Positions 1 to 32,000 of a stretch of 32,000 bases of DNA are shown here, piece after piece. Under the pieces are notes generated by a model. It did not search any database and had not been told where the DNA came from. It worked only from the letters and a program-made list of their open reading frames with translations. Both the position numbers and the translations under genes were made by a program. This DNA comes from Candidatus Saccharimonadota bacterium (GTDB taxonomy: Bacteria; Patescibacteriota; Gracilibacteria; Absconditabacterales; Absconditicoccaceae), in assembly GCA_000503875.1 (NCBI GenBank), contig CP006913.1, positions 30,001-62,000 on the forward strand, given 5' to 3'. How positions within the stretch are numbered: position 1 is the stretch's first letter; each line of letters begins with the position of its first letter.

Positions 1-335
1 AAAAAGCAGTTAAGGCCAAAAAAGACACGAAGGCAAAATTGAGAATCAAATTGAAAAGTTATGATGCAAAGATGTTGGAGTCTTCTGTTTGAAAAGTTGT
101 TGGTTTGCTTATTAAATCATGAGCAGAAATTAAAGGACCAATACCTTTGCCAAAAAAAAGAAAATTGTATACAGTTTTGAGAGCAAACTTTAAACATAAA
201 GATTCTAGAGAACAATTTGAAAGAATTACTTATGCTAGAATGATAGATGTTGTAGAAACGGGTTCTAAAACTATGGAATATCTCCAAAATTTAGCAATAC
301 CTGTTGGTGTTATGGTTGATGTAAAGGTTTTCTAA
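1..335 (+). CDS. rpsJ: 30S ribosomal protein S10 (5' end outside window)
   Basis: Open from the window edge in frame 3. Reads ...KLRIKLKSYDAKMLESSV[G]KVVGLLIKS[G]AEIKGPIPLPKKRKLYTVLRANFKHKDSREQFE... Bracketed G are in-frame TGA at 90-92 and 120-122. Stop TAA 333-335. The track shows only the last 62 aa. Confidence 0.93.
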
Positions 336-375
336 TCAAGATGTTTCTTTTTTAATTTAATGAATAATCGTACTA

Positions 376-978
376 ATGAATAAAGGAGGATTAGTGGTAA
401 AAAAACAAGAAATGACCAGGGTTTGGGTAGAAGATAAATTTGTCCCAGTAACTATAGTAAAAGTTGTGCCACAAGAAATTGTAAGATATAAAACAGCTGA
501 AAAAGATGGATATGCCGCAGTAGTTGTTGGTGTAGATAAAAAGGAAAAAGAAGCTAAAAAATGAAAAAAAATAGTTTACAAAGATACTATTGAATTCAAA
601 ATAGATTCTGATTATGAACAAAATAATCAGGTCGGTAAAGTTTTTGATGTAGATATGGTACAAGGAATTGAATCTGTTGATGTAATGGGAATATCAAAGG
701 GTAAAGGATTTCAAGGTATGGTAAAAAGATGTAACATAAAAGGAATGCCTGCAACCCATGGTCATAAATTCACAAGAACTTGAGGTTCAAAAGGAAATAG
801 AAAACCAAGAAGAACACTTAAAGGACATCCACATGCTGGACATATGTGAGTAGATCGCGTTACACTAAAAGATATTAAAATTCTTGATATCGTAAAAGCA
901 AATGGCGAACAACTTATTGCTCTAAAATGATCATTACCAGGAGCATATAATGGACTATTAAAAATTACACTAAACTAA
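376..978 (+). CDS. rplC: 50S ribosomal protein L3
   Basis: ATG 376, MNKGGLVVKKQEMTRVW... Four in-frame TGA. HAGHM[G]VDRVT and LK[G]SLPG fall on conserved L3 glycines. Stop TAA 976-978. The track has only 376-564. Confidence 0.93.
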
Positions 979-1019
979 TTATTACCCCAAATTAATTCTT
1001 AATTCTTAATTTATATAAC

Positions 1020-1649
1020 ATGGTATATTCTGTAGATATATATGATAAAAAATGAAAAGTTGTTTCGACTGTAGATCTTAACGAAGATATTTTTGCAGAC
1101 GGAAATGTAAATGAATCTTTGATTCATGAATATGTTATTTTGCAAGCAAGTAATGCTCGTCATAATATTGCTTGTACAAAATGAAGATGAGAAATCGCAT
1201 GATCTGGAAGAAAAATATTTAAGCAAAAAGGAACAGGAAACGCAAGGGCTGGAGATAGAAATTCCCCAGTAAGAAAATGAGGATGAGTTGCTTTTGGGCC
1301 TAGATGAGAAAGAAATTTTGAAAAGGCTATGAATAAAAAAGCAAGAAGAAATGCATTGATGGGTATTATTACCTTGAAAGCAAAGGATAAAGCTCTTTTG
1401 GGATTAAAAGATTTCGATCTTACTGAGCCAAAAACTAAAGATCTTCTTGATATAGTAAAAAATATTGGAATAGAAGGAAAGAAAGCATTATTTGTCTTGG
1501 GAAGTAAAAATCAAAATATTGAAAAATCCTTGAGAAATATTGCAAATGTAAAATACATTACCGTAGGATATCTCAATCCCTTGGATGTGATGTCTGCTAG
1601 TAAAGTAGTATTCTTTGAAACAGCTTTACAAGCAATTAATTCAAAATAG
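1020..1649 (+). CDS. rplD: 50S ribosomal protein L4
   Basis: ATG 1020. Reads ...TK[G]R[G]EIA[G]SGRKIFKQKGTGNARAGDRNSPVRK[G]G[G]VAFGPR..., the L4 core motif, with 7 TGA=Gly. Stop TAG 1647-1649. The track shows only the C-terminal 106 aa. Confidence 0.93.
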
Positions 1650-1674
1650 TTTATTTGATCTTACGAAAATAAGC

Positions 1675-2016
1675 ATGGTATTCACGCAAAAATTACAACA
1701 AAGAGCTAAAAAGAACGTTGAGAATAAAATAGTAAAAAAATTCTCAATCTATGATGTTATTTTGGCTCCTATAGTAACAGAAAAAACCTACAAATTTCAT
1801 GATACTGCAAACAAATATTGTTTTAAAGTGCACAAAGGTGCTAATAAAAACGATGTAAAAGCAGCTATCCAATATTTGTATAAGGTTACTCCTGAATCTG
1901 TTAACATCGTAAATGTTGTTTCTAAAAACAGAACTCAGAGAGGATTGGTTAGAAAAGCTTACAAAAAAGCTGTAATTACTTTGTCTAAAAAAGACAAAAT
2001 AGAAATCGGATTATAA
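1675..2016 (+). CDS. rplW: 50S ribosomal protein L23
   Basis: Reads ...KKFSIYDVILAPIVTEKTYKF...KVHKGANKNDVKAAIQYLYKV..., typical of L23. ATG 1675 is preferred over the track start at 1615, which would overlap rplD by 35 nt. A ~24 aa basic N-terminal extension remains either way. No TGA. Stop TAA. Confidence 0.88.
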   Translation: MVFTQKLQQRAKKNVENKIVKKFSIYDVILAPIVTEKTYKFHDTANKYCFKVHKGANKNDVKAAIQYLYKVTPESVNIVNVVSKNRTQRGLVRKAYKKAVITLSKKDKIEIGL

Positions 2017-2046
2017 GATATATTTAGTTTTGATTAGTATTTCACG

Positions 2047-2895
2047 ATGGCAATAAAAAAATACAAGCCGTATACCCCTTCTAGACGTTTTATGGTTGGA
2101 TACGACTTTAGCGAAATCACCACTAATAAACCAGAAAAATCTTTGGTTACCTCTTTGTGAAGAACGGGAGGAAGAAACAATCAAGGAAGAGTAACTTCTA
2201 GATGGATGGGAGGATGACACAAAAGACTATACAGGATAGTTGATTTTAAGGGATATGATAAAATAGATATCCCAGCAAAAATTGCTTCTGTAGAGTATGA
2301 TCCTTACAGAACAGCAAGAATAGTTCTTTTGAATTATGCTGATGGTGAAAAAAGATATGTATTAGCATGGAAAGGAGCTACTGTTGGTGAAGAAGTAATA
2401 ACAGGAAAAAATTCTCCAATCAAAGCAGGAAATAGAAAACAACTCAAAGATATTCCAGAAGGAATGAATGTTTTTGCTCTTGAAGTAACGCCTTTTTCAA
2501 AAGGTAAGTTAATAAAGACAGCATGATCATACGCTAGTATTGTAGGTAGAGATGACCAACAAAAGAAAGTGTTTATTAAAATGCCTTCAGGAGAAGTAAG
2601 AAAATTTGATGAAAATTGTTGGGCAACTATTTGAGAAATAGGAAATGATCAACACCAAAATGTTGTTATAGGAAAAGCTGGAAGACAAAGATGGATGGGA
2701 AAAAAACCTCACGTTCTTGGAAAAAATATGAATCCAGTTGATCATCCGCATGGAGGTTGAGAATGACATTCACCTATCGGATCAAAGAGATGACCAAAAT
2801 CATTTGCTTGAAAAAACGTTTCTGCTGGAATCAAAACTAGAAAAAGCAAGAAATGGTCTACGAGATTTATTGTATCTAAGAGAACAAAAAATTAA
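2047..2895 (+). CDS. rplB: 50S ribosomal protein L2
   Basis: ATG 2047, [16 protein letters not shown]... Reads RWMGG[G][10 protein letters not shown] and NPVDHPHGG[G]E[G]H, with TGA at 2758-2760 and 2764-2766 on the invariant GGGEG. Eight TGA in total. Stop TAA 2893-2895. Confidence 0.95.
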
Positions 2896-2923
2896 TTATA
2901 CATTTTAATTATTAGTTTATATC

Positions 2924-3181
2924 ATGGTAAGATCACTCAAAAAAGGGTTTTATGTCAATCCAAAGATAGAAAAGAAAGTAAAGGACATGGTTACATCTTG
3001 AGATAAAAAGGTGATAAAAACATGGGATAGAGCATGTCAAATTACTCCAGATATGTTATGATTTACCTTTGCGGTTCATAACGGAAAGCAATTTGTAAGC
3101 GTCTACATCACAGAAGATATGATGGGCCACAGATTGGGGGAATTTGTTCCAACAAGAACATTTAGAGGACATCCATTTTAA
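2924..3181 (+). CDS. rpsS: 30S ribosomal protein S19
   Basis: ATG 2924. [11 protein letters not shown]...VTS[G][19 protein letters not shown][G][37 protein letters not shown]. Stop TAA 3179-3181. Absent from the track. Confidence 0.93.
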
Positions 3182-3215
3182 TGGATAATTGTTTTAAATC
3201 TAAACATGAGTAATA

Positions 3216-3554
3216 ATGAGTAATAGTATGTCAGCTATATTGAAATATGCACTAGTTTCTCACCTCAAGATGGAACTAATAGCTAAATTAGTAAGAGGAA
3301 AAAAAATTCAAGAAGCTTTGGATACATTAGAATTTTTGCCAAAAAAAGCTGCAAAAACATTATACAAGGTTATTAAATCTGCAGCAGCTAATGCAGTAAA
3401 AAACGCTAATAAAGACGTAAATAGTTTATATATTGAAGCTATTGATGTTTGAGCTGGTCCGAAACTAAAGAGAATAAGATTCACATCAAGATCAAGAATT
3501 AGTCATTATGCTAAATACAGATCTTTTGTGAGAGTTGTTTTAAATAGTAAATAA
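3216..3554 (+). CDS. rplV: 50S ribosomal protein L22
   Basis: Track ORF 3216-3452 extended through TGA: ...LYIEAIDV[G]AGPKLKRIRFTSRSRISHYAKYRSFVRVVLNSK. Stop TAA 3552-3554. An alternative in-frame ATG lies at 3228. Confidence 0.9.
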
Positions 3555-3562
3555 TCTTTGAT

Positions 3563-4228
3563 ATGTGACAAAAGGCAAATCCAGTTGGAATGAGAGTTGG
3601 TATCGTAAAGTCTTGGCCATGTGAATGGTTTGGAAAAACAAAGGCTATAGGATCTGATTTTTTCGTTGAAGACATAAAAATAAGAAGATTTATAGAAAAA
3701 ACATTCCCTAGAACAGGAGTATCAAAGGTGGTTATTAGAAAAACAAATAAAGAAGGAGAAATAATTATATTCACTTCAAAAGTTGGTGTTTTAATGGGAA
3801 AACAAGGGACAAAAGTTAAAGAATTCGAAGATATGTTAAAAAAGACATTTAATAAAGATTTCAAGGTTGTTGTTAAAGAAGTAAAGAATCCAGAATTGTC
3901 TGCAAAAATTATGGCTGAATTTATAGCTGCTCAATTGGAAGCCAGAATGCCATATAGAAAGGTAGCCAAAAATGTACTTCAAAAAATTATAGAAAAAGGT
4001 GCTGCTGGTGCCAAAATTCAAATTGGAGGAAGACTTGGATGAACAGATATAGCAAGAACAGAAAAATTTATTAATGGAAGAGTTTCTTTGCAAACATTCA
4101 GATCAGATATAGATTACTGTCACTTACAAGCTATGACAAAATATGGAGTATTGTGAGTAAGAGTATGGATCCAAAAGTGAGTATTGAATACAAAGAATTC
4201 AGTTACTACAAAAAAAATAGCGTTATAA
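3563..4228 (+). CDS. rpsC: 30S ribosomal protein S3
   Basis: ATG 3563 is followed immediately by TGA 3566-3568. M[G]QKANPVGMRVGIVKSW is the canonical S3 N-terminus MGQK. The frame continues through TGA 4040-4042 and two more. Stop TAA 4226-4228. Confidence 0.94.
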
Positions 4229-4254
4229 GTTTTATTTAATGTGGATGTATAAAA

Positions 4255-4674
4255 ATGTTATTAACTCCAAAAAGATGGAAATATAGAAAACCAATCATCA
4301 AATCTTTGACAGGTAAAAGTGCAAGATGAACTACTGTTGCGTTTTGAGATTATGGATTAAAAGCAACAACAAGTGCATATATTTCCAATAAACAAATAGA
4401 ATCTGCCAGAAAGGTTATTGTAAGATCTATTAAAAAGGTTGGTAAAATATGGATTAGGATATTTCCTGATACACCATTTACCAAAAAAGGATTGGAAATG
4501 CCGATGGGTACTGGAAAAGGAGATGTTGATATTTATACAGCACCAGTAAGAAAATGAAAAGTGTTGTTTGAAGTAAGTGGTTTGAATGCTGCAGAAGCAC
4601 ACGAAGTTCTTATAAAAGCATCAAAAAAACTTCCAGTAAAAGCAAGAGTTGTTGCAAAAGGAGAAATTAGATAA
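4255..4674 (+). CDS. rplP: 50S ribosomal protein L16
   Basis: ATG 4255. MLLTPKRWKYRK...GKSAR[G]TTVAF[G]DYGLKA...RIFPDTPFTKKGLEMPMGTGKGDVD... Stop TAA 4672-4674. There is no forward ORF in the track because of 3 TGA. Confidence 0.93.
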
Positions 4675-4721
4675 TTTTATTTGTTTTATCGTTTGGTACA
4701 ATGAAGTGAAAAGCATTGTTT

Positions 4722-4928
4722 ATGAAAGAGTTGTCTTCAAAGTCAGTAAAGGAACTTGTAGATATGAGAAGAAAAATGAAAAAAGAACTTTTTGAGTTAA
4801 AATCTAAAAATGCAATGAGATGACTCAAAGAAACTCATAAAATTGGAGATACAAAAGTGAAGATAGCTAGAATAAATACTCTTTTATCTCTTAAGATTAA
4901 AGAAAACTATGGCAATAATATGAAATAA
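4722..4928 (+). CDS. rpmC: 50S ribosomal protein L29
   Basis: ATG 4722, with an in-frame alternative ATG at 4701. MKELSSKSVKELVDMRRKMKKELFELKSKNAMR[G]LKETHK... Stop TAA 4926-4928. Confidence 0.85.
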
Positions 4929-5163
4929 GAACATAAAAGAACTCATAGGAGAGGTAATAAGCGATAAAACAGATAAGACTTGTGTCGTATTAGTGAAGTC
5001 TGTAAAAATACATCCAATTTACAGAAAGAGATTTATCGTAAGAAAAAAATATTATGTTCATGATGAACAAAATATTGCAAAAATTGGAGAAAATGTAAAA
5101 TTTAGAGAAATCAAGCCTATAAGTAAACTTAAAAAATGGGCTTTAGTAGAAATTATAAAATAA
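4909..5163 (+). CDS. rpsQ: 30S ribosomal protein S17
   Basis: ATG 4909 overlaps the rpmC 3' end by 20 nt. MAII[G]NKNIKELIGEVISDKTDKTCVVLVKSVKIHPIYRKRF...KKWALVEIIK. Stop TAA 5161-5163. Confidence 0.88.
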
Positions 5164-5189
5164 ATCATTTATTTGTTTTTTAAAAAGCA

Positions 5190-5570
5190 ATGTTAAAGAC
5201 CGAATCAATTGTTGTTGTTGCTGATAATACAGGAGTAAAAAAGGCTAAAATAATTAGAATTTTGAAATCTTCTATGGCAAGAACAGCTACAATAGCAGAC
5301 AGAGTTGTAGTTGCTGTGCAAGAAGTTGCATCAACTTCAACAATCAAAAAATGAGAAGTTTCTCAAGCAATGATCGTAAGAACGAGAAAAGAAATAGCAA
5401 GAAAAGATGGAACATATGTAAGATTTTGAGATAATGCAGTAATTCTTATGTCAAAAGATGCAAAATGAGAAATCAAGCCTATAGGAAAAAGAATTTTTTG
5501 ACCTGTTGCAAAGGAATTAAGAGATTTGTGATATAGAAATATTACTAATATGGCCGAAGAAGTTGTGTAG
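5190..5570 (+). CDS. rplN: 50S ribosomal protein L14
   Basis: ATG 5190. MLKTESIVVVADNTGVKKAKIIRIL...VRTRKEIARKDGTYVRF[G]DNAVILM...IF[G]PVAKELRDL[G]Y... Five TGA. Stop TAG 5568-5570. Confidence 0.92.
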
Positions 5571-5614
5571 TAATTATAGATTTATATCGGCTTTTACATT
5601 GTTATATTTATTGA

Positions 5615-5905
5615 ATGAAAAAATTAAGATCTGGAGATCCTATCATAGTGATCGCAGGAAAATATAAAGGGAAAGTATCTTCTATAGAAAAAATAGATGA
5701 AGATAAGGTATGGGTAAAAGAAATAAATGAAGTAAAAAGAGCTATGAAAGGAAAGGGGTTTATCAAAAAACATCTTCCTATTCATATTTCAAATGTGATG
5801 TATTACGATGAAGCGACTAAAAAGCCTTCAAAAGTACAAATATCTACCACAAAAGAAGGGAAAAAAATAAGAAAAATAGCAAAGACAAACAAAGAAATTA
5901 AATAA
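5615..5905 (+). CDS. rplX: 50S ribosomal protein L24
   Basis: Intact track ORF with no TGA. MKKLRSGDPIIVIAGKYKGKVSSIEKI... is a KOW motif, and the gene sits in the expected position between rplN and rplE. Confidence 0.9.
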   Translation: MKKLRSGDPIIVIAGKYKGKVSSIEKIDEDKVWVKEINEVKRAMKGKGFIKKHLPIHISNVMYYDEATKKPSKVQISTTKEGKKIRKIAKTNKEIK

Positions 5906-5930
5906 TTTTATTGTGTTTATTTAAACATAC

Positions 5931-6470
5931 ATGAGTGCACTACAACAGTTTAACAAGGAAATCGTTCCTGCTCTAAAAGAAAAATTATGAGTAAAGAACA
6001 TACATTCAGTACCTAGAATAGAAAAAGTTGTCGTATCTGTAGGAATTTGATCATTGGCAACAAGAAAATCGGTTAAGGATTTTGATGAATTTGAAAAAAA
6101 TCTCATTAAAATAACTGGTCAAAAACCAACCTTAATCAAATCAAGAAAATCAATCTCTAACTTCAAATTAAGAGAAGGTATGCCAGTTATGTACAAAGTT
6201 ACCTTGAGAAGAGCAAGAGCTTATGATTTCTTGGCTAGATTTGTAAAAGTGGTTTTACCAAGACTTAGAGATTTCTCTGGATTATCTTCAAAATCATTTG
6301 ATCAAAAGGGAAATATGAATATTGGATTAGTAAATTACAATATATTCCCAGAATTAAATGTTGATGATGTAAATACACCTATGGGACTTCAAATAACTAT
6401 TGTTACTTCAACAACAAGTACAGAAAGATCAAAGGCGTTATTGCAAGAGTTATGATTATTATTCAAATAG
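5931..6470 (+). CDS. rplE: 50S ribosomal protein L5
   Basis: ATG 5931. MSALQQFNKEIVPALKEKL[G]VKNIHSVPRIEKVVVSVGI[G]SLA... joins the track ORF starting at 6054. It reads through TGA 6453-6455 to ...LLQEL[G]LLFK. Stop TAG 6468-6470. Confidence 0.93.
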
Positions 6471-6499
6471 TAAAACTTTAATTTATATTACGTATTCTA

Positions 6500-6715
6500 A
6501 TGGCAAGAACTGCATTGAAAGTAAAGCAATGGAAAATGTTCGAAAAAAGGTTCGTCAAGGGCCAAGATTTGAAACAACCTACGAAATATTATAACAGATG
6601 TAGATTATGTGGAAGATCAAAATCATTTATCAGAGATTTTGGTATTTGCAGAGTCTGTTTGAGATCATATGCAAGAGAAGGATTAATTATGGGATTAAGA
6701 AAAGCGAGCTGGTAA
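6500..6715 (+). CDS. rpsN: 30S ribosomal protein S14, zinc-ribbon (type Z) form
   Basis: Intact track ORF of 71 aa. CRLCGR...CRVC zinc ribbon and a ...GLRKASW C-terminus. Correct operon position. Confidence 0.9.
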   Translation: MARTALKVKQWKMFEKRFVKGQDLKQPTKYYNRCRLCGRSKSFIRDFGICRVCLRSYAREGLIMGLRKASW

Positions 6716-6745
6716 AAATTTTTTATTTTGTGAATGTTGCAAGTA

Positions 6746-7150
6746 ATGAGTTATGTTAATGCCCCTATTCATGATTTGTTAATTAGAATTAAAAATGCTT
6801 ACATGGCAAGAAAACCTCTTGTAGAATGAGTATCTTTTTCTAATTTTAAACAACAAGTACTTGAATTATTAAAACAATATGGATTTATCAAAAATCTAGA
6901 AATTGTTGAAGAAGATGGAAAAAAATTTATTAATATCTATCTTAATCCAGTTAAAGATTCAATTAATGATATTCCGAATGTTAAATTTTACTCAAAACCT
7001 TCGAGAGCTTGGTATGTAAGATCAAAAGATATTCACACCGTAGCTGGATGAAAAGGAATTGGTATTATTTCTACAAGCCAAGGATTGATGGCTGCTCATG
7101 TTGCAAAACAGAAGAAAATAGGAGGAGAACTTATTGCAGAAATCTATTAA
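6746..7150 (+). CDS. rpsH: 30S ribosomal protein S8
   Basis: ATG 6746, with an alternative in-frame ATG at 6734. [27 protein letters not shown][G]VSFS...HTVAG[G][32 protein letters not shown]. Stop TAA 7148-7150. Absent from the track. Confidence 0.92.
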
Positions 7151-7222
7151 TCAAAAAATAAAATCTGATGGAATATCTTCTATTTGGATATTCATTCGAC
7201 GTTTTATTAGTAAATATACATT

Positions 7223-7768
7223 ATGTCAAAAATTGGTAAGAAACCTATCATTATAAAAGATGGTGTTGAAGTAAAAATCAACAACAAAACAGTTGCTGTA
7301 AAAGGACCTAAAGGAGAATTGTCTTATACTTTGCTCGATGGCGTTAATGCTAAGGTAAATGAAGGATCTCTTGAGGTAAGCATAGATAATGATGAAAAGA
7401 GAAATCTTCGAGGATTAACAAGAACTCTTATTTCAAATATGATAGAAGGAGTAACAACAGGATATGAAAAGAAATTGTTGGTTATTGGAGTTGGATATGC
7501 TGCCAAAAAAGAAGGAAAAGGTATTCAATTATCTTTGGGACTTTCTCATAAAATAAACTTTGAAATACCAGCATCTATTCAATATGAAGTTGAACAAGAT
7601 CAAAAAGGTAACTATGTAATTACTTTAAAGAGTATTGATAAACAATATCTTTGAGAAGTTGCATCAAAAATAAGAGATTTGAAAAAGCCAGAACCTTACA
7701 AAGGAAAAGGTATTAGATATTTTGATGAAGTAGTAAAACTCAAAGCTGGAAAAACAGCTAAGAAATAA
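7223..7768 (+). CDS. rplF: 50S ribosomal protein L6
   Basis: Track ORF 7223-7654 extended through TGA: ...SIDKQYL[G][37 protein letters not shown]. Stop TAA 7766-7768. Confidence 0.93.
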
Positions 7769-7794
7769 TCTTTAAATCCATATAGTATACAGTC

Positions 7795-8154
7795 ATGCAA
7801 AATTTGAAACCAACAACAAAGGGGAAACTAGCTAGTTTCTTTAGAAGAAAAAATAAGGTAAATGCTATTATAAAATCTCAGCATCCTGATTTTAGAATTG
7901 TTGTAAATAGATCAAATAGATATATCAAAGCTCAATTATTGGACAAAACAGGAAATGTTATTGGCTTTGCTTGTGATAAAGGACTCAAATGAGAAACTAA
8001 ATCGCAAACAGCTCACGCAGCATGATTGTTACTAGCAAAAACAATAAAAGATAAAAAAATCGAAAAAGTTGTTTTTGATAGAAATGGATACTTGTACCAC
8101 GGAAGAGTAAAATCATTTGTGGAAGGGTTGAGAGAAGGTGGAGTAGTTTTGTAA
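7795..8154 (+). CDS. rplR: 50S ribosomal protein L18
   Basis: Track ORF 7795-7992 extended through 2 TGA: ...CDKGLK[G][10 protein letters not shown][G][42 protein letters not shown]. Stop TAA 8152-8154. Confidence 0.92.
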
Positions 8155-8188
8155 ATATCGTTTATTTATTATATAATCTATTGTGCTA

Positions 8189-8836
8189 ATGAAAGGTGGG
8201 AATAAAGATAAGACAAAAAAAGAATTTGATGAGTTGTTGCTTGAAGTAAGAAGAGTAACGAGAGTTACGACATGATGAAGAAGAATGTCATTTAGAGCGA
8301 CAGTACTTGTTGGAAATAAAAAAGGAAAAATCTGACTTTGAGTTTCAAAAGGAGCCGATGTTTCAATCGCAGTATCCAAAGCTTCTCGTGAAGCATACAA
8401 AAATATGTATATTGTTCCTCTTACAAAAGATAATACTGTTCCTTATATGACAAGTACAAAATATAAAGCATGTTTTGTAAAATTGTTACCAGCAAAAGCA
8501 GGTACCGGTCTTAAAGCAGGATCATCAGTAAGAGCTGTTTTGGAATTAGCAGGATATGAAAATATGTTATCAAAAATAGTATGATCAAATAATAAATTGA
8601 ATAATGCTATAGCAACTATAAAAGCATTATCAAGTTATAAACACAGTGATTTCTTCTCAAATTTCTTGACTAAAAAAGGAGCAAAAACTGAAGAAGTAGT
8701 GGTAGAAGCTACAACAACAACACCAGCTGAAGTAGCAAAACCAGTTCATAAAGAAGAATCAAAAGAAGAAAAAAAAATAGGAGATACAAAGCCAGCTGTA
8801 AAAAAGCCAGCTCCAAAAAAGCCAGCTAAAAAATAA
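8189..8836 (+). CDS. rpsE: 30S ribosomal protein S5 with Lys/Pro/Ala-rich C-terminal extension
   Basis: ATG 8189. ...LLLEVRRVTRVTT[GG]RRMSFRATVLVGNKKGKI[G]L[G]VSKGADVSIAVSKA... joins track ORF 8597-8836. The C-terminal tail ...KPVHKEESKEEKKIGDTKPAVKKPAPKKPAKK is not part of canonical S5. Confidence 0.92.
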
Positions 8837-8863
8837 ATTTTTTAATTATTGTGCTTATTACAA

Positions 8864-9529
8864 ATGAAATTACATACGCTCAAAAGAAGTAAAGGAATTG
8901 TAGGAAAAGCTAAAAGACTTGGAAGAGGAAATGGTTCTGGAAAAGGAAACTATTCTTGAAAAGGTCTTAAAGGACAAAAAGCAAGAAGTGGTACAACAAC
9001 AAGACCATTTTTTGAAGGAGGTCAAACTTCTATCGTTCAAAGAATTCCAAAAGCAAAAGGATTCAAGAGACATTTCAAATTAATAAAGGAAGTGGTAATT
9101 GTAAATCTTGGAAATCTAGATGCTGATATAAGAATCGTTGAAGGTATGGAAATTACAAAATCAACTTTAAAAGACTTGGGATATATCAAGAATGCTACAG
9201 CATATGTAAAATTACTTGGAAATGGAGATTGGACAAAGAAAGTAACATTTGTTGATATAGATACATACTCTAAATCAGCACAAGAAAAAATAGGAAATCC
9301 TTCTGCAAAAAAACCAGCTACAAAAAAAACAGCTGAAAAGATAGAAGAACCAAAATCAGAAAAAAAACCAGCTGCAAAAAAAACAGCTGAAAAGATAGAA
9401 GAACCAAAATCAGAAAAGAAACCAGTTGCAAAAAAGACAGTTGCTAAAGCTGAAAAACCAGCAGCAAAGAAACCAGCCGCAAAAAAACCAGCTGCAAAAA
9501 AAACATCAACAAAAAAAGACGCTAAGTAG
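8864..9529 (+). CDS. rplO: 50S ribosomal protein L15 with repeat-containing Lys/Ala/Pro-rich C-terminal extension
   Basis: ATG 8864. MKLHTLKRSKGIVGKAKRLGRGNGSGKGNYS[G]KGLKGQKARSG... joins track ORF 9092-9529. A C-terminal tail of ~75 aa made of AKKP and EKIEEPKSE repeats. Stop TAG 9527-9529. It follows rpsE after 27 nt with no rpmD between. Confidence 0.92.
9308..9415 (+). repeat. In-frame 54-bp tandem repeat (2 copies plus degenerate continuation) inside the rplO tail
   Basis: 9308-9361 and 9362-9415 both read aaaaaaccagct(a/g)caaaaaaaacagctgaaaagatagaagaaccaaaatcagaa, identical at 53 of 54 positions. They encode KKPA(T/A)KKTAEKIEEPKSE twice. Degenerate KKPA units follow to about 9510. Confidence 0.9.
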
Positions 9530-23129: not shown

Positions 23130-23160
23130 GGTGGTATGTATTTATCTGTTATATATAATT

Positions 23161-23889
23161 ATGGCAACCAAAGATTTAAAAAAGATTGAACACGCACCAG
23201 AAAGACATGAGATAGCTGAAGATATAGTATCTATCAGAAATTTAAAATCTTTTACTCAAGAAAAAAGAGAGGTGCTTATCAAAGAACTTCTTGCTCAAAA
23301 AGAACTTACGCAAACACCAAGAGCGTATCCATTCCCGCAACATAAATGATATGCAGAAGTATGGAAATCTCTTACTCCAGATCAACAAAAAGAAATGAAA
23401 GACAATATCAGAGTGACTACTGACGGGAAAGTAGAAATGATTAAGATGAAAAAGAAATTTTCTGCGCTTACAGCTAAACATAACGGAAAAGATATCTTTG
23501 ATGGAAGTCATGTAGATGGAAATTGAAATACAGGAATCAAAGGAGTAACGTATTTAACAGGTAAAGCAGCCGAAAAGGAAGCAAAAAATCAAAGAAAAAA
23601 ACTATTAAAAGATAAATCAGAAATTGAACAATTTATTAGTTTCTTTCCTGGAGAAGGCACAAAAGAGAAAGTATTTAATTTTGTCAAGTTATTTGGCTTA
23701 GAAAAGGCTGGGTGTTGGCATCCTAATAATAAGGAATGGAACGGTGTCGGGTCTGTCGGCTATGTAAGGTTGTCTCGAGTAAATGGCAATGATAATGTAT
23801 ACGTACTCAAATGGTTTAATGATAATGTAAGTATAAATCGAGGCAATCAGGAATATCCGTCTCCTTTTCTTGCCTTTGAGGACTGCTAA
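23161..23889 (+). CDS. Hypothetical protein (possible degenerate FISUMP/DUF1566-like C-terminal module)
   Basis: ATG 23161, preferred over the track's GTG 23128. 242 aa through 2 TGA. Stop TAA 23887-23889. The C-terminus ...GLEKAGCWHPNNKEWNGVGSVGYVRLSRVNGNDNVYVLKWFNDNVSINRGNQEYPSPFLAFEDC loosely resembles FISUMP-type domains. No signal peptide was seen. Confidence 0.45.
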
Positions 23890-23901
23890 TTTTAAAACCA
23901 T

Positions 23902-23936
23902 AAAGATCAGCTTTCATTAGCTGGTCTTTTTCTTTA
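23902..23936 (+). terminator. Intrinsic terminator
   Basis: AAAGATCAGCT-ttcatt-AGCTGGTCTTT is an 11-bp stem with one G:U pair. It is followed by ttttcttt and starts 13 nt after the stop at 23889. Confidence 0.65.
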
Positions 23937-24002
23937 ATAAAATCAGATTTGCATTATCTTCCTAAATTTTTATAAGGAATACGTTTATATTACTATCTAG
24001 TA

Positions 24003-25616
24003 ATGAAATTTTTTTGAATTGAAAAAAGAAATGTTTCCACGCGAAAACCACTTCAGGCAGTTAGTGTAGTTTTTTTTATCCTTTTGGCTGCTGCTTTTTC
24101 TTTGATTTTATTTTACCATAAAATTTCTCTCTTCCTTTTTGAAAAGGATAAAATAGATGTTTTCAAAGAAGATTTACAACAAATAGCTATTTATTTTCTT
24201 CCTATTGATAAACAAGTTGCCCACTTCTTGGTAACATTAGACCATATTATTCAAGGATATCTCGCAGGAGAAAATATTCTCATCACCCAAGAAAAAGAAA
24301 TAGAGGAAACTCGAGAATATATGCAAAAAAACAAGAGTTATCTCAAAAAAATGTGATTTGCATGATATGAAAAAATTATAGATTTTGTAGCAGATTTACG
24401 AAAATATAAATCAGAATTTTTTGATTTGATGGGAAAAAATAAACCTTACAATTATCTCGTGATCTTACAAAATACAAATGAAAAGAGACCAAATGGATGA
24501 TTCTTCTGATCATTTGCATTTATTACAATGGATAAGGGGCATATAAAAAATCTAGAAATTGTTGATTCGTATTATCCAGATTTCATTGCTTATCGTACGC
24601 GTATTATGGCGCCAGAATGGACTTCTGCATTTCTTCCTGATCGTAAGATAGGATTTATTGCAGGAAATAAATTTGGATTCACGGATATCGATGGGAAAAA
24701 TCTCAAAGATCTCTATGAAAAAATGTTCAATGAAACCTACGAAATGCGAAAAGTGAAACAGACGATGGCACCAGATTTATACGAGAAATTGCTGAACAAA
24801 TATATCAAATGAGTAATCTTCATTAGATCAGATACCATAGAAGAGATTATTCCTGGATTTAGAGAAAAGATCTGGGAATGGCAATTTCTCAACGCTTCTG
24901 TCGATCTTTTGAGAGGAGAAATTCGCGGAAACAAAAAAGAAATGTATATCCAAGAAGTGAAATCTTTTTTTGCAAAACATAGAACCGATATTATCAAAAA
25001 TGTCGTAAATAATTTTGAAGAACTTACAAAAAAACAAGCAATTAATATCTGGCTGTCGAATGTAAGTACGGGGATGCAAGAAACTATTCAAAAAAACAAT
25101 CTGATAAACACCTTCAAAACAGGGTTTATGTACGCTTGGGATACCAATACTTCTTTTGATAAGGTAGATGGTTTTGTCACCAAATATATCCAAATCAAAG
25201 ACGCTAATAATGATACAGTCAAAGAAATGCGAGGAGATATCATCGATATTAATGATCTCTCAAAAGGTAAATATACCATGGGTATTTCTTATGAACTCAA
25301 AGTCCCTGATCAATATATTGCCTTTATCAAAGGATTAGAAAAAAAATACGATATCGAAATTACGGATAGAGAAAAATGAATATTAGCAATTCAATCTAGT
25401 GTTTTTGATGATCCAAAACGAGGAAAAGTTACCAAATGGCGAGAGACAAAATCTACTCTGTATGTACCCAAAAATATTGTTATCACCGATGTTGAAGGAG
25501 AAACTTTATATGACGAAAAATTTACAACACCATTTGCCAATGGATTGTTTTACCAGATATTAATCAATACAAATAATACCAAAAAATCTGTGAAAATAAA
25601 TTTCGAAATGAAATAA
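24003..25616 (+). CDS. DUF4012-family membrane-anchored protein
   Basis: ATG 24003, 537 aa through 7 TGA, joining track ORFs 24084, 24528 and 24909. N-terminal TM VSVVFFILLAAAFSLILFY. YLVILQNTNEKRPNG[G]FF[G]SFAFITMDKGHI matches the DUF4012 core (QN..E.R..GGF.GS). Stop TAA 25614-25616. Confidence 0.65.
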
Positions 25617-25955
25617 TTATTTACCAATAGTATTTTTTCTCATTTTAGTCCTTGTCCAACCTGACATCGGAGCAACAACCATTTCTGATCCACCAGAAGG
25701 TGTTCTAATATATCTATATCCATCAGGATCTAGTCTAAGTCTTGTTTCCCAGCAAATTTTTCTACCTCTCAAAAATCGGTGATAATCACGCCCCTTTGGA
25801 TTTGTCCAAACTCCTACAGCACCAAGATCTTTCCCTTCTTCTAGGGTAAGTTTTCTTTTTGGATATTCAAATCTTTTCATTCCTTTGAGTCTATTTGCTT
25901 GTTTCGATTGTATCGCTTTTTTCTTAGCAATTCCTTGTTTATTTGTTCTAGCCAT
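25617..25955 (-). CDS. Small basic hypothetical protein
   Basis: Intact track ORF of 112 aa, rich in Lys and Arg, with no TGA codons. ...GVWTNPKGRDYHRFLRGRKICWETRLRLDPDGYRYIRTPSGG... Its stop codon (25617-25619) directly abuts the stop of the convergent DUF4012 gene. No family recognised. Confidence 0.5.
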   Translation of the reverse strand: MARTNKQGIAKKKAIQSKQANRLKGMKRFEYPKRKLTLEEGKDLGAVGVWTNPKGRDYHRFLRGRKICWETRLRLDPDGYRYIRTPSGGSEMVVAPMSGWTRTKMRKNTIGK

Positions 25956-26022
25956 TTTTATAATGTTAAATTTAAATATTTAATTGTAGATTAGCAAGTT
26001 ATTTATAATAAATATCTTATAA

Positions 26023-26670
26023 TTATCAACCAATAATTTTTATCAACTCTTCAAATACTTTTTCAATCGGCTGATCACCGTTGATATGACGAACCAAGCC
26101 TTGTGCTTCTAATTTTGCTAAAGTAGGAATACAGAGTTCTTCATACCAAGCAAATCTGGTCTCTATTTTTTCAATCATTTGATCATCAGTTCTTTGATAC
26201 AGGTCTTTAGACTGGCAAATAGGACATTGAGCAATATCATGAAGATGCTGATTCAATATAGCACCACATCATTTACAAAGCCATCTTGCTGTTAATCTTT
26301 TGATTCCTATTTCTTTGCTGATATCCAAAATCACCCAAAGAAATTCTTTATTATATGATTTCATAAGTTCTATAAATTGTTCGGTTTCTCCTGGTTTTCT
26401 TGGAAAACCATCAAGCAACATTCCCTTTCCTTCTTCCATGGAAAGGAGAAATAATTCAAACAATTTTACCATAAAAACATCAGGAACTGCGTTTCCATGA
26501 TCGATCAACGATCCGATATAATCGCCAATTGTATTAGGTCTACTCTGTAATGTTCTCAACATTCCTCAAGCTTCAAAATATTTAATTTTATCTCAAAAAT
26601 GCTGGAGGAGCAAGTTTGCTTGAGTTCCTTTTCCAGATCATTGAATTCCAGATAAGATAATATTTTTCAT
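26023..26670 (-). CDS. adk: Adenylate kinase (zinc-lid type)
   Basis: ATG 26670. MKNIILSGIQ[G]SGKGTQANLLLQHF[G]... is the P-loop, with TGA at 26638-26640. ...LLDGFPRK... The lid reads CK[G]CGAI...CPICQS. It ends ...KIIG[G] with TAA 26023-26025. Joins track ORFs 26269-26562 and 26026-26256. Confidence 0.9.
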
Positions 26671-26693
26671 TCAAAAACGATACCATATAAAAT

Positions 26694-27698
26694 CTATTTA
26701 TTTCTGAGTCTCTCAAGTTCTTCTAACATCTGATAAATCAAAATACTTGCATAGGATCCGCTCGGCAAACTAAATTCAATCAACAGATCGTCATTTTGAT
26801 ATCTCACACGCGTTTCGCTTGGCATTACCCAAATTGGTCTTGGAATTCCAAAGATCTTATTTTTTTTATAACAAGCAAAGAATTCTGAATTAATTTTATA
26901 TTTTTCCATAAATTTTTTCTGAATTACTCATGCTTTCGTAGTTGGTTTTGCAATCGCTACATCATCTCCGAAGACGGGTCACGTGATCTGTCCATCTTTA
27001 ATAATTTCACCTTCAATCATCATTCTTCCTAGGGGTAATCTCTCTTTAAGATATTGGTTGAACAACCAACTGGCATATGCTTGAAGTTTGAATCTTGCTT
27101 CAAAATTATCTTTGATCGAGGTTTTCTTCTCTACGATTGCCTTCCCAATTTCCCAGTTTTTCCCATTGATTCCAAATCTCTGTGTTCCAAAGAAATTGGG
27201 AAATCCTTCTTCGAATAACTTCTCCACAATTTTTTGTGCACGTATTTTTGTCTGTTCTCCCAGTGCTTGTGTGGCTCTAAGTCTAATAGAGAAATGATTA
27301 GTGATATTATCGGTCATCTGGACAGGTTTGATATGATATGTTGTTTCAATGATTTTTGCTACACGAGAAAGCGTATTTAAGAATACTTCTTCACCTCCCA
27401 TTTTTTTCAAGGCACTCTGATAGATGCTGATCCATTGTCTGGTGATTGCATCTTTATCTTTGAGTCCAGCAACTCATAAGGTAAGTCTAGATATATGCAA
27501 TTCATTACATAGGAAGTTGATAATACCCATTGTTGTCATATTTTGTTTTTCAAAATAGACGAAAAAGGCATCTCCCGTTCAATCTAATTCAAAAGGCAAA
27601 CGTTCTTCAACAATAAAATCATATGATTTTTGTTTAAAAAGAAAGAGTGGTTTTGCTTCTTCATAATTTGATGATTTTGTCATTGGAATGATGGTCAT
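26694..27698 (-). CDS. truD: tRNA pseudouridine synthase TruD/Pus7 family
   Basis: ATG 27698, with an alternative at 27683. 334 aa through 4 TGA. ...L[G]VAGLKDKDAITRQW... is the catalytic-Asp motif GxKD. ...FPNFFGTQRFG... Joins track ORFs 26979-27410 and 26694-26909. Stop TAG 26694-26696. Confidence 0.82.
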
Positions 27699-27707
27699 AA
27701 GGTGAAA

Positions 27708-29225
27708 CTATTTTTGAATAATATTTATTTTAATTCTAGATTTAAGTTTTGTTACTGAAGTATACCACGGTGGTCTAACACTTATGGTTGCTGATGAAAT
27801 TTCCGGATAGCCAAGAAGCAATAATTTGGCTTTTTCTTTATTTATTCCTACAATACTTGTTTTAATGGTATCCAAAATATTATTAATATCTTTTTGAAAA
27901 TCATATCATTGAATAATAGTTAGTTTTGTTGGAATAATATATGCTCATAAAGCATCTTTTTTTATGGTAGAAAAGAAAACCACAGAAGATCTATCAATGG
28001 TAATAAGTTTAACTTTATCAGAAGGTCTTTGTTTGAGGTAAAGTTCAGTTTGCGTAAATAAATCAGATTGTTGAATATAAGCAAACGAAAGACGGGCAAC
28101 AATAGATCCTTTGAGATAGGGCACTTTTTCTTGTGCTTTATTTTCAATAGAAGTAGAAAGAATTTCGATACCAATCAGATCATCAAAATGGAGAAAAATT
28201 TGTCCAGGCAAAGTAAAATTCTGATTTATAATATTTTGTTTTTGTTGTTTAATGGTTGAGATAAGTTTTCATGAAAGCGCTTCAATATCTTTTTGTGTTA
28301 CAATACCTTCTGAAGTCATAGATCAACCAGAAAATTGAGCCGTTGCTACAGCATAAATATTTTTTAGAAAGAAACTTTCTTTGAGATTTTTAATATATAA
28401 AGTTGTATCTTTGGTAATATTACCTCTTGCTCCAATAACATTTCCTTCTTCATCCTGATCACTTGCAACAATTTCAACAATTTTATCAGAATGAGGGTCT
28501 AATTTGAACCAATCTTTTGATTTAAAAACAAGTCAGTCATCTGTTACAAATCTGGTTCATTTTAATAGATTATATTCTTTTTCTGTAGGGTTAAGAACTC
28601 TGATTGTTCATTGTGATGGACTTTGAATGTGCTTGATGTTTTTTACGCTGATTGATAACGTATATTTATAATCAATAAATCATGTTTGATAAGGAATAGC
28701 AAGATTTTTTGTTTGAAGAGCGAATTCTTTATCATTTGCAGGATAATAACGGAAATTATAAATTATATTTTCTGACTGATTAGCGGGATAGATATCAATA
28801 ATAGTTCTTGGAAGAATCAGTGAATACAAAAAATACAAAATAATCAATGCAAAGGCTACCTCAAATCCGAAAATCATATAAAACATATAGTTTTTTTTGG
28901 TATATGCTTGGAGATGAAATTGTTTGATATTAAAAAAGAATAGATAAACGAGATGTAATATCTTCAATAATTTATGTTTTTCTTGATGAATAATAGGAAG
29001 TCCGATTTTTTCAAAAAATCTTTTTGAATTTTCTGTTTTGGTAATAAAAAATGCGTGAATATTTCTTTGTTGTAAAAGTTCTTGAATTTGTTTTCCCCAC
29101 CATTCATTATCAAAAAAAGCATGCTCAGGATCTATGGAAATATGAACGGTTTTTCCATTGGGAAGCTTTTCGAGCGTTTTGAATATTTTATATAAACTGT
29201 GGTCTTTGAGAAAAAAAAGTTTCAT
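27708..29225 (-). CDS. Large single-pass membrane protein of unknown function (architecture resembles CPR proteins often annotated baseplate J/gp47-like)
   Basis: ATG 29225, 505 aa through 8 TGA (verified line by line), joining track ORFs 28680-29225 and 27945-28211. Stop TAG 27708-27710. N-terminal cytoplasmic domain, then TM YMFYMIFGFEVAFALIILYFLYSLIL, then the extracytoplasmic region ...TRFVTDD[G]LVFKSKDWFKLDPHSDKIVEIVASDQDEEGNVIGARGNITKD... Confidence 0.55.
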
Positions 29226-29274
29226 TCGTCAGTACTATATCTTTTAAAGCTTTTGATTTTTTATATTTTGATTG

Positions 29275-30069
29275 TTAGTTTTCCAAAATTGGTTTTGGAG
29301 TATTTCGTTTTTTATGATAATAGAGACAAAGCATAATAACAAAGAATGAGAGATGTTGTTTGATATCAAGACTAATATTTCCCATAGAAATTACCATATA
29401 TCTTGGATATTGTTGTATCATTAGAATGATATTGATCATGATCAGTAAATATGCTAATCATTGTAATCAAAACCCTCTCTTTTTCCAAATAATTCTTCTT
29501 ATATGAACAGCAAGTGCAATTGCTAATGCTCCCAAAGAAAGGAACAATCCAATAGGATATACTGCATCAAATTTATTTCGTTGGCTTTCTGAATGAAGAG
29601 CTTTCATTCCCAAAAAGGAATCAGTAGTGTTTCCTATAAAATTATCTCCCAAAAGCAAGAAAATCCCCAAAGGAACAATACACAAAGTAAACGCATAAAA
29701 AAAGATATCTGCCCAGATTTTTTTATTTTCTACTGTTTTTATTTTTTTGAAAAAAGAGCAAAGTGCTATAACTAACCCCAATAAAATACCAGCAAAATGG
29801 AATTTATATCAATAAGGTCCAACAATAGAAATCAATTGTTCGATAGTTGTTGGTATTATTGCTTGATTGGAAAGCATAAATTGAACATATGAACCCAAAA
29901 AATACACTAAAGTAATTACTAGAGGAAGTCGATAGAAAAATCTCCAAAATCCCTGTAAATACCTTTTGCTTAGGTACCAAACAATGATAATAAACGTAAG
30001 AAAAGAAATAACAATACCAATTCCTGTCATGTAAATTTTCGCTCACCAGATGGTAAGATAGGGATACAT
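29275..30069 (-). CDS. lgt: Prolipoprotein diacylglyceryl transferase-like membrane protein (divergent Lgt)
   Basis: ATG 30069, 264 aa through 4 TGA, joining track ORFs 29809-30030 and 29467-29781. MYPYLTIW[G]AKIYMTGIGIVISF..., ...Y[G]YKFHFAGILLG..., ...LLLGDNFIGN..., ...AVYPIGLFLSLGA... are Lgt-like but divergent. Stop TAA 29275-29277. Confidence 0.55.
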
Positions 30070-30112
30070 ACTATCAATTAACAATTAAAAGCTAACAGCT
30101 AAGCACCAAAAA

Positions 30113-31615
30113 CTAACGTAAGAATTCAATAATTTTTGTTTCTCTAATTCCTGTGATTCTAATAATTCCAGGGTAATCAAGTTGGCTATCTATTTTTTCT
30201 CCAATAGTTTTGAGAAGTTTTTCAAGTTCGAGATCTGAAATTTCTTTTGGATTTACATACACCATAATTTCTCTACCAGCTTGCATGATATGTACTTTAT
30301 CTATACCAGGAATTTCATTAATAAGTTTTTCGAGTTCTCCCATTTTTTCAATGAAGAGTTCTTTTGTATTAAATCTAGCTCCAGGTCTAGAAGCAGACAT
30401 AGCGTCAGCAGCAGTAACGATCCAAGCATAAGGATTATCGATAGGAACATCGTAGTGATGTGCTTCTGCAGCATTAACAATAATTGGATCCATTCCAAAT
30501 TTTCTAAGAACATCAGCTCCAATTTTTGCATGAGATTCACCTGTATTAGCGATAATTTTTCCAATATCATGAAGTAATCAAGCCTTTTTTGCAAGTAAGG
30601 TATCCAAACCAAATTCACTTGCGATAGCTTCACAGATTTTTGCTACTTCAACACTGTGTTGCCACAAGTTTTGACCATAACTAAATCTGAGATAATATTG
30701 ACCAATCATTTTTACAATTTCAGGTTTCATCATAGGAATATTGAGTACAGTCAACGCTTCTTTTCCTTTTTCTGTATATAACATATCCAAATCACTAACT
30801 ACTTGATTATATGTTTTTTCAATATAGAAAGGATTTATTTTCCCGTCTTTAACCAATCTTTCAAGTGTTGTTGCCGCAATATATCTTTTTTCACTATCAA
30901 AAGAAGATAGTCTAACTACAAGAGGAGTATCATCAACAATCAATTCCACACCAGTCATTTTTTCAAAATATGAAATATTCCTTCCTTCTCTTCCGATCAA
31001 TTTTCCTTTGAAATCTTCGTTAGGAAGATCAACTGTTTTAGTAGTAAATTCACTTACCGAATCAACAGCAACCCTAGGAAGTGCCTTACTAATAATCATA
31101 GCTGCTTCTTTATCAGCTTCCTCTTTTTTGATATTTTTAAGTTTTTCAATAAAGGTCGTAAAATCATTTTGATATTCTTTTTCAATCTGATCCATCAATT
31201 GTTTTTTTGCTTCTTCTTTGCTAAGTTTTGCCATTTCAGCAAGCTTATTTACTTGTTCGTTAATTTTTTCTTCTAGATCTTTTTGTTTATCGTTGAGTTT
31301 TCCTTTTTCTTGCTCTAATTTTTCTAATTTTTCATCCATTTTTTCTTCTCTAGCAAGCAATCTATTCTGAATAACTTCCATTTTTTGTAATCTTTGGTCT
31401 TCGATTCTTTGTGCTTTTTCTTCAGCTTGTTCCATTAATTTTTCTACTTTTTTCTTTGCTTCTTCAACCATTTCTTCCTCTAATTCTTTAGCTTTATTCA
31501 TTCTTTCTTTAAATTGGATTGCTTTTTGAGTAAGGGTTCTTTTATAACCATAAAATCCTGCTGCTCACCCAAATCCTAATGCAAGCAGGTATCCAAGAAT
31601 AACAAATATGTTCAT
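30113..31615 (-). CDS. rny: Ribonuclease Y
   Basis: ATG 31615. N-terminal TM MNIFVILGYLLALGFG[G]AAGFYGY, a Glu/Lys coiled coil, a KH domain (...GKLIGREGRNISYFEKMTGVELIVDDTP...) and an HD domain (...LLAKKA[G]LLHDIGK...AAEAHH...). 500 aa with only 2 TGA. Stop TAG 30113-30115. Confidence 0.93.
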
Positions 31616-31735
31616 CGGTTTTTCAATATATTGAGATAAAAAAATCTATAGTAAAATGTCCCTAAAAAGGGCACGCAAATAAATATAGGATTTCAGTTGA
31701 GAAATGCAACGGGAAAATAATATTGTAGGAAATAT

Positions 31736-32000
31736 TTAATTTAATTTTTCCAAGATTCATCATAATTCTAACAGTTTTTCTTCTTGCCGTCTATCAGTCA
31801 TTAACTGGATTCCCATTGGTAACATTTCACCATTTTCTTCTATCATTCCTCATGGAATAGACATTGCTGGAATTCCTGCCATATTAGCCGGAATAGTGTA
31901 CATATCTTCCAAATACATAGTCAATGGATCATTGATTTTTTCTCCGATTTTTCCTGGGAGAGTAGGCGTTGTAGGGGTTATGATTGCATCATACTGTTCG
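31736..32000 (-). CDS. gatA: Glutamyl/aspartyl-tRNA amidotransferase subunit A (3' end; 5' part outside window)
   Basis: The minus frame from the window edge reads ...[47 protein letters not shown][G][29 protein letters not shown][GG]ILEKLN. Stop TAA 31736-31738. Confidence 0.85.

Follow-up and report, generated by a model that had tools for sequence, protein, structure and literature searches.

NCBI translation table 25, the Candidate Division SR1 and Gracilibacteria code that reportedly goes back to Campbell et al. 2013, reads UGA as glycine, uses UAA and UAG as stops and keeps CGA and CGG as arginine codons. It is the table applied to RAAC1_SR1_1 and other SR1 deposits. Here we analyse the genetic code of a 32,000-nucleotide stretch of DNA (the window) that comes from the chromosome of candidate division SR1 bacterium RAAC1_SR1_1 (GTDB UBA5124 sp000503875, Absconditabacterales) or of an identical metagenome-assembled genome (MAG). 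The window shares the UGA, UAA and UAG assignments of table 25, but its CGA and CGG codons behave as tryptophan codons. We hold with high confidence that it is written in the Absconditabacteria code, in which UGA stands for glycine, CGA and very probably CGG for tryptophan, UAA and UAG for stop, and AGA, AGG, CGU and CGC for arginine.

Two of these assignments have already been published for this very genome, UGA as glycine in 2013 and CGA as tryptophan in 2021. In RAAC1_SR1_1, code 11 gave 2,288 short open reading frames (ORFs) with a mean length of 289 bp and code 4 restored normal ORF sizes, while conserved alignment positions pointed to glycine at UGA and a tRNA-UCA gene proved nearly identical to those in other SR1 genomes (Kantor et al. 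2013, PMC3812714). That study concerns the same organism and makes the same UGA observation as ours; it predates the CGA/CGG finding. CGA and CGG were later predicted to encode tryptophan across Absconditabacteria (Shulgina & Eddy 2021, PMC8629427), a statement repeated in a 2026 paper (PMC13092985). The Figure 4 source data of the 2021 study list both GCA_000503875.1 and GCA_003543185.1 with UGA as glycine, CGA as tryptophan and CGG as ‘?’ (PMC8629427), the inference of CGA as tryptophan for GCA_000503875.1 being that of the program Codetta. Both assemblies are credited there with no tRNA bearing the anticodon ACG and one each with GCG, UCG, CCG and CCA, and their codon-usage rows are nearly identical. 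We found no entry for the assembly or the clade in the supplements of a 2026 NAR (Nucleic Acids Research) paper.

The window agrees with the Absconditabacteria code (PMC8629427) in every testable feature: UGA as glycine, CGA as tryptophan, low GC content, arginine dominated by AGA and a rare CGG (2 in 10,150 codons). To the ‘?’ given to CGG in the published screen of this genome it adds one position favouring tryptophan, so that CGG as tryptophan would probably be a smaller new point. Other known codes share parts of this pattern. Table 4 of Mycoplasma and Spiroplasma likewise makes UGA a sense codon in low-GC, reduced genomes, but the amino acid in the window is glycine rather than tryptophan, and the tRNA-Trp(UCA) of those organisms contrasts with the extra tRNA-Gly(UCA) described for RAAC1_SR1_1 (PMC3812714). 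In Anaerococcus and RFN20 Bacilli, also of low GC content, tryptophan has captured an arginine codon of the CGN box as well; these bacteria lack tRNA(UCG), only CGG has changed and CGA is still read as arginine by tRNA(ICG), whereas the organism of the window lacks tRNA(ACG) and has CGA as its main reassigned codon (PMC8629427).

UGA is a synonym of the GGN glycine codons

Under table 11, the window holds 85 ORFs of at least 60 amino acids, only 2 of which reach at least 200 amino acids, the longest having 307. Freeing TGA as a sense codon gave 25 ORFs of at least 200 amino acids, whereas freeing TAG gave 2 and freeing TAA 7, none of them above 307 amino acids; the lengthening is therefore specific to TGA. 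A preliminary description of this DNA, made from the sequence alone, had called its stop-at-TGA ORF track misleading, and the jump from 2 to 25 long ORFs bears this out. Our initial non-overlapping set with TGA as sense contained 41 ORFs (28 closed by TAA and 13 by TAG) with 192 TGA and 86 TGG codons, and covered 95% of the window. One over-extended ORF was resolved into an SdpI-like and an ArsR-type gene, bringing the count to 42 genes with about 185 in-frame TGA (hand recount using ENA gene starts), close to the 42 genes and roughly 180 TGA codons of the preliminary description. As that description had also said, all 42 terminate at TAA or TAG, which leaves UAA and UAG as the sole stops, a result that is partly built into the construction of the gene set. 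All Pfam matches, however, were full length; table 4 likewise yields full-length ORFs.

The identity of the amino acid was read from 20 proteins of the window (SecY plus 19 ribosomal proteins), which we aligned to their Escherichia coli K-12 orthologs with TGA masked as X. The E. coli residue was glycine at 32 of the 53 aligned TGA codons and tryptophan or cysteine at none (p = 5.7e-20 against a glycine background of 9.4%). GGA and GGT codons faced glycine in E. coli at 74–76%. Tryptophan was opposite 10 of the 20 aligned TGG codons, in keeping with the earlier remark that TGG is still used at conserved tryptophan positions.

Comparison with close relatives requires no translation table at all. 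We collected 27 loci around MraY homologs, set aside an Erysipelotrichaceae outgroup and mapped codon to codon at aligned positions in the remaining 26 Absconditabacteria/SR1-type MAGs. TGA codons of the window were paired with TGA in 51% and with GGN in 27% of cases, and GGA codons of the window with TGA in 37%. Per site, 71 of 95 TGA positions had GGN in at least one relative, compared with 9 of 249 AAA control positions; one of the 95 had TGG and none an arginine codon. TGA makes up about a quarter of the glycine codons of the window. UGA is thus a sense codon and a synonym of GGN in the Absconditabacteria clade, as the preliminary description had proposed on the strength of individual motifs.

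Those motifs hold up. All seven TGA coordinates given there are in-frame TGA, in the sequence contexts described. Codon 2 of S3 (3566–3568, + strand) reads MXQK, with glycine in E. coli (MGQK), and two TGA codons of L2 (2758–2760 and 2764–2766, within 2758–2766, + strand) fall in HPHGG-X-E-X, for which E. coli has HPHGGGEG; with TGA as X, the L2 motif reads HPHGGXEXH and a motif of L4 reads RKXGXVAFGP. In MraY (17678–18733, − strand; 10 TGA and 3 CGA), two TGA codons (18536–18538 and 18530–18532, within 18530–18538) lie in TPTM-X-G-X, the first of them aligning with glycine in the three solved homologs shown. The remaining two, placed by gene models and Pfam, are in the P-loop of adenylate kinase (Adk; GIQ-X-SGKGTQ, 26638–26640, − strand) and in the lipobox of an FKBP-type lipoprotein (L-A-X-C, 14556–14558, + strand).

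CGA and probably CGG are predicted to encode tryptophan

The codons of the standard arginine set are used very unevenly in the window: AGA 306, AGG 19, CGT 26, CGC 9, CGA 40 and CGG 2 among 10,150 codons. CGA is about half as frequent as UGG, and CGA and CGG together account for about a third of the tryptophan codons. Across the 26 relatives, the partners of CGA were CGA (28%) and TGG (28%), with AGA outside the top eight; TGG was in turn paired with CGA in 19% of cases, and the partners of AGA were AGA, AAA and AGG. At the level of sites, 19 of 25 CGA/CGG positions had TGG in a relative and 1 of 25 a standard arginine codon, while for AGA/AGG positions the figures were 1 of 79 and 71 of 79 (Fisher p = 1e-14). 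Because the MraY query carried tryptophan at CGA and two of the search patterns included such positions, three MraY sites may be biased towards TGG; without MraY, TGG occurred in a relative at 16 of 22 CGA/CGG and 1 of 76 AGA/AGG positions (p = 1e-12).

When the partner analysis was extended to all codons, only TGA, CGA and CGG deviated genuinely. TGG, ATG and AGA were flagged as well, artefactually: tryptophan and methionine have no other synonymous codon, and the commonest substitution of AGA is lysine. The serine codon TCC had tryptophan codons among 23% of its non-identical partners (n = 75), its majority partner being serine; this pairing probably comes from one or two variable serine/tryptophan sites.

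Outgroups that use the standard code point the same way. The decisive case for CGA as tryptophan, and the best outgroup comparison that the window offers, is a membrane protein of the SdpI/DUF1648 family (10978–11628, − strand; 216 amino acids, 5 CGA, assigned by Pfam). We aligned 120 homologs, comprising 104 distant ones (36–54% identity, the named ones from other Patescibacteria) and 16 close relatives. Among the distant homologs, tryptophan occupied the column of codon 39 (PRH-CGA-N, 11512–11514, − strand) in 103 of 104 and that of codon 152 (KTP-CGA-T, 11173–11175, − strand) again in 103 of 104. At codon 89 (11362–11364, − strand) they carried tyrosine (70), tryptophan (22) or phenylalanine (10), and TGG was present in 3 of 3 aligned relatives. 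The two other CGA columns were mostly hydrophobic or variable, and arginine was not among their commonest residues. Database sequences of the 16 close relatives mostly show arginine at the CGA columns, as would be expected if the same codon had there been translated with the standard CGN box.

Other families give a similar, less uniform picture. In a polyprenyl synthase, codon 58 (RIRPYVM-CGA, 19051–19053, + strand) faces W, Y, L, L and V in the five best solved homologs, and relatives have TGG (three), CGA (three) or CGG (one) at this position; codon 135 (GDLIFS-CGA, 19282–19284, + strand) faces W, W, M, E and R, with TGG in four relatives, CGA in two and CGG in one. The best solved homolog, 3lk5, has tryptophan at both columns and the second best tyrosine and tryptophan. 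Of the three solved MraY structures shown, one has a gap at a transmembrane CGA column and the other two have L and V, and the column of RlmN codon 141 had A and V in homologs. The sole informative CGG of the window is codon 43 (17527–17529, − strand) of a Wzy_C (O-antigen ligase-like) membrane protein (16300–17655, − strand; 20 TGA, 16 TGG, 8 CGA, 1 CGG). At this position, 24 relatives carried TGG (14), CGA (5), TTT (2), ATG (2) or ACG (1).

Taken together, these patterns lead to the prediction that CGA is a tryptophan codon in the organism of the window, and that CGG probably is one too. Table 25, the code proposed in the preliminary description, therefore holds for UGA and for the UAA and UAG stops and falls short at CGA and CGG, which swap with TGG. 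As table 25 keeps both as arginine, it mistranslates 42 codons in the window, about a third of its tryptophan positions.

Reassigned codons in ribosomal and other genes

CGA and CGG are distributed unevenly between gene classes. In the ribosomal genes (1–9529), they make up 1 of 19 tryptophan codons (5%), as opposed to 41 of 109 (38%) in the other genes (Fisher p = 0.0065). The ribosomal proteins, some 3,000 codons in all, contain that one CGA/CGG and specify arginine almost always by AGA. For TGA the difference was not significant, its share of glycine codons being 23% in ribosomal and 28% in other genes. It seems that the younger reassignment, that of CGA/CGG, is avoided in highly expressed genes. 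The scarcity in ribosomal genes may be no more than the usual bias against rare codons, or may point to less efficient or ambiguous decoding. CGA and CGG might then be read mainly as tryptophan with residual arginine insertion or low efficiency, making RAAC1_SR1_1 a natural intermediate; this idea is doubtful, although unclean decoding would explain both the near-exclusion from ribosomal genes and two CGA sites, described below, that align with lysine and arginine codons.

Competing readings of UGA, CGA and CGG

For UGA, one alternative keeps the standard code and explains the in-frame TGA by pseudogenes, sequencing errors, programmed read-through or selenocysteine. Nothing beyond the fragmented table 11 ORFs speaks for this alternative, and it would have to accommodate about 185 in-frame TGA in 42 genes, essential ribosomal proteins included, sites that remain TGA or GGN over 26 relatives, a sequence identical in independent assemblies and the absence of cysteine from every TGA column in E. 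coli. We give it a negligible probability and regard it as refuted. The Mycoplasma-type table 4, with UGA as tryptophan, also produces full-length ORFs, it is the code that Prodigal picked for these scaffolds (PMC3812714), and the ENA and Logan protein copies carry tryptophan at UGA. Yet tryptophan was found at 0 of the 53 TGA columns in E. coli against 32 with glycine, TGA swaps with GGN and meets TGG at just one of the 95 positions, and the tryptophan content of the window would rise to 2.7%, compared with 0.8% from TGG alone. The E. coli columns and the codon swaps of the relatives thus refute table 4 as well, and its probability is hardly above nil; the interchange of TGA with GGN and the glycine columns together lead us to reject both the table 4 and the TGA-stop readings.

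The remaining questions concern CGA and CGG, and several points weigh against the Absconditabacteria code here. The CGG assignment depends on one informative position, the window having two CGG in total. Two CGA codons, Wzy-like codon 64 (17464–17466, − strand) and MraY codon 86 (18476–18478, − strand), face mainly the lysine and arginine codons AAA, AAG and AGA in relatives; such sites could lie in variable loops or be remnants of the old arginine meaning. One distant solved polyprenyl synthase homolog has arginine at a CGA column. The hydrophobicity of neighbouring residues did not distinguish CGA contexts from arginine contexts, in a comparison that has no power because TGG and arginine contexts were equally inseparable. 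ARAGORN and Rfam, applied to the window and to 51 kb of the source contig, detected no tRNA with anticodon UCA, UCG or CCG. Finally, only experiment can establish CGA as tryptophan or exclude ambiguous decoding, according to the authors of the prediction themselves (PMC8629427). If UGA were the only reassignment and CGA and CGG had stayed arginine, as in plain table 25, the two lysine/arginine-aligned CGA positions and the arginine of the distant polyprenyl synthase would be accounted for, and the NCBI record of RAAC1_SR1_1 is indeed translated in this way. Such a code would leave unexplained why CGA and CGG trade places with TGG and hardly ever with one of AGA, AGG, CGT and CGC, the opposite of what true arginine codons do, and why the columns of two SdpI CGA codons hold tryptophan in 103 of 104 homologs; Codetta also gives CGA as tryptophan for this assembly (PMC8629427). 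We consider plain table 25 very improbable. A transitional state, in which CGA is mostly tryptophan and partly arginine through tRNA competition or mischarging, was explicitly left open in the published prediction (PMC8629427). The codon would then survive only where a gene is weakly expressed or less critical, as the 1 of 19 versus 41 of 109 contrast (p = 0.0065) would suggest, and the few CGA positions opposite basic residues would fit. However, avoidance in ribosomal genes fits equally well with a bias against a rare codon served by a low-abundance tRNA, or with ancestral TGG kept at conserved sites, and the use of CGA at two nearly invariant SdpI tryptophan positions argues for faithful insertion of tryptophan. 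Ambiguous decoding is therefore unlikely in our view, and the Absconditabacteria code with CGA as tryptophan remains the preferred reading.

A possible decoding mechanism

The published tRNA sets suggest how this code could operate. UGA would be read by a dedicated tRNA-Gly(UCA) (PMC3812714). CGA and CGG would be read by tRNA(UCG) and tRNA(CCG) carrying tryptophan identity elements, and CGU and CGC by tRNA-Arg(GCG), the inosine-forming tRNA-Arg(ACG) being absent (PMC8629427). The lack of tRNA-Arg(ACG) is what allows the CGN box to be split, and wobble of the UCG anticodon is the reason given for the joint change of CGA and CGG (PMC8629427). Low GC content, according to the literature, may have made UGA and CGR rare first, with codon capture following. 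GC content is 29–34% across the window and about 31% overall.

Reassignment of UGA is expected to be accompanied by loss of release factor 2 (RF2, encoded by prfB). A passage in PMC8629427 states that two Gracilibacteria without UGA reassignment do encode RF2.

ARAGORN and Rfam reported ordinary tRNAs only, namely Ile-GAU, Phe-GAA and Pro-UGG, which precede tuf in the stretch of source contig, and Gly-UCC and Gly-GCC in the 27 related loci. The tRNA-Ile(GAU), tRNA-Phe(GAA) and tRNA-Pro(UGG) genes form a cluster at 7873–8128 of locus L034, about 1.5 kb before window position 1. A metagenome scan for tRNA-Gly(UCA), with a guessed pattern made of the D-arm of the clade’s tRNA-Gly and a UCA anticodon loop, returned 71 loci, 13 of them with a tRNA(UCA); glycine identity elements were recognized in 0 of the 11 extracted, and the host contigs were not SR1-like. 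One of the loci, L052, lies on the 349-kb contig Ga0265780_10000024 (locus GC 0.47) and contains a 76-nucleotide tRNA with a UCA anticodon at 553–628 (− strand). By eye, this tRNA starts with GCG and seems to end with CGC and U73, that is, the glycine identity set, which the script parse did not confirm. On this locus, the coverage by ORFs of at least 150 amino acids doubles with TGA as sense (1.38 compared with 0.68), and a second tRNA(UCA) is located 1.2 kb away. This contig probably belongs to another organism with a recoded UGA.

Gene content of the window

The window opens with an S10-spc operon (1–10910, + strand), identified by Pfam, alignment to E. coli orthologs (32–54% identity) and codon counts. 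Its genes follow the order S10 (cut at the 5′ end), L3, L4, L23, L2, S19, L22, S3, L16, L29, S17, L14, L24, L5, S14, S8, L6, L18, S5, L15 and SecY, and together they contain about 60 in-frame TGA and a single CGA. There is no L30 between S5 (end 8836) and L15 (start 8849), which are 12 nucleotides apart, and Pfam L30 had zero matches among the proteins of the window, the scope being the window rather than the whole genome. The spacing and the Pfam result confirm the absence of L30 recorded in the preliminary description, which fits the ribosomal set of the candidate phyla radiation (CPR)/Patescibacteria. S5 and L15 (8183–9529), proteins of 217 amino acids (167 in E. coli) and 226 amino acids (144 in E. 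coli), respectively, carry long C-terminal tails rich in lysine, alanine and proline. Neither tail has a TGA codon, so read-through is not their origin. The L15 tail includes a near-perfect tandem duplication, with KKTAEKIEEPKSEKKP occurring twice.

In most bacteria, secY is succeeded by adk, map and infA. In the window, it is directly followed on the opposite strand by the SdpI/DUF1648 gene and an ArsR-type helix-turn-helix (HTH) regulator of 89 amino acids (11618–11887, − strand; PF12840, PF01022), which overlaps the SdpI start by 11 nucleotides; adk is found at a distance of about 15 kb, on the other strand (26023–26670). The pair (10978–11887, − strand) resembles the SdpR/SdpI immunity pair of Bacillus. 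The densest use of TGA in the window is found in a 368-amino-acid protein without a Pfam match (15170–16276, − strand), which has 21 in-frame TGA and a hydrophobic N-terminus and is conserved in closer SR1 relatives only, at 29–70% identity. The remaining genes (12007–32000, both strands; Pfam and gene models) all require TGA as sense, and include an RNA U5-methyltransferase, an HD hydrolase, the FKBP lipoprotein, the polyprenyl synthase, a cohesin-like protein, RlmN, a DUF4012 protein, Adk, TruD, RNase Y, the C-terminus of GatA and several proteins without a family match.

Source organism and public annotation

Exact look-ups of window proteins without TGA placed the window in public collections. 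It matches DPJE01000004.1 of GCA_003543185.1 over its full length with 0 mismatches, and is also identical to Logan contigs and to a 264-kb contig that ENA has for a sediment metagenome (PRJNA167727). With glycine at TGA, S19 and MraY are exactly AHB40849.1 and AHB40872.1 of RAAC1_SR1_1, encoded on a contig of 1,177,760 bp, the MraY match holding with arginine at CGA; identity to RAAC1_SR1_1 is thus a matter of protein matches rather than of a DNA comparison with CP006913. These exact matches settle the SR1/CPR lineage suggested in the preliminary description. At NCBI, GCA_003543185.1 goes under Gracilibacteria (taxid 2044595, since renamed ‘Candidatus Altimarinota bacterium’), a label in conflict with its sequence, which is identical over 32 kb to SR1/Absconditabacterales DNA and encodes exact RAAC1_SR1_1 proteins.

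One locus has been translated in three different wrong ways. The gene calls of GCA_003543185.1 are fragments in the style of table 11, the ENA and Logan proteins follow table 4 with tryptophan at UGA, and the NCBI proteins of RAAC1_SR1_1 follow table 25 with arginine at CGA. An MraY with both glycine at UGA and tryptophan at CGA was absent from the collection of 15 billion proteins that we searched. Two nearly invariant tryptophans of the SdpI-like protein are written as arginine in most of its close relatives in the databases. Such errors carry over into every homology search, structure prediction or conservation analysis that relies on SR1 proteins.

With the biology itself already known, the importance of these results is for annotation: scans of the SR1 clade should use a custom code, namely table 25 with CGA and CGG as tryptophan. 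Should the decoding of CGA and CGG turn out to be unclean, RAAC1_SR1_1 would in addition offer a natural intermediate of a sense-to-sense codon reassignment.

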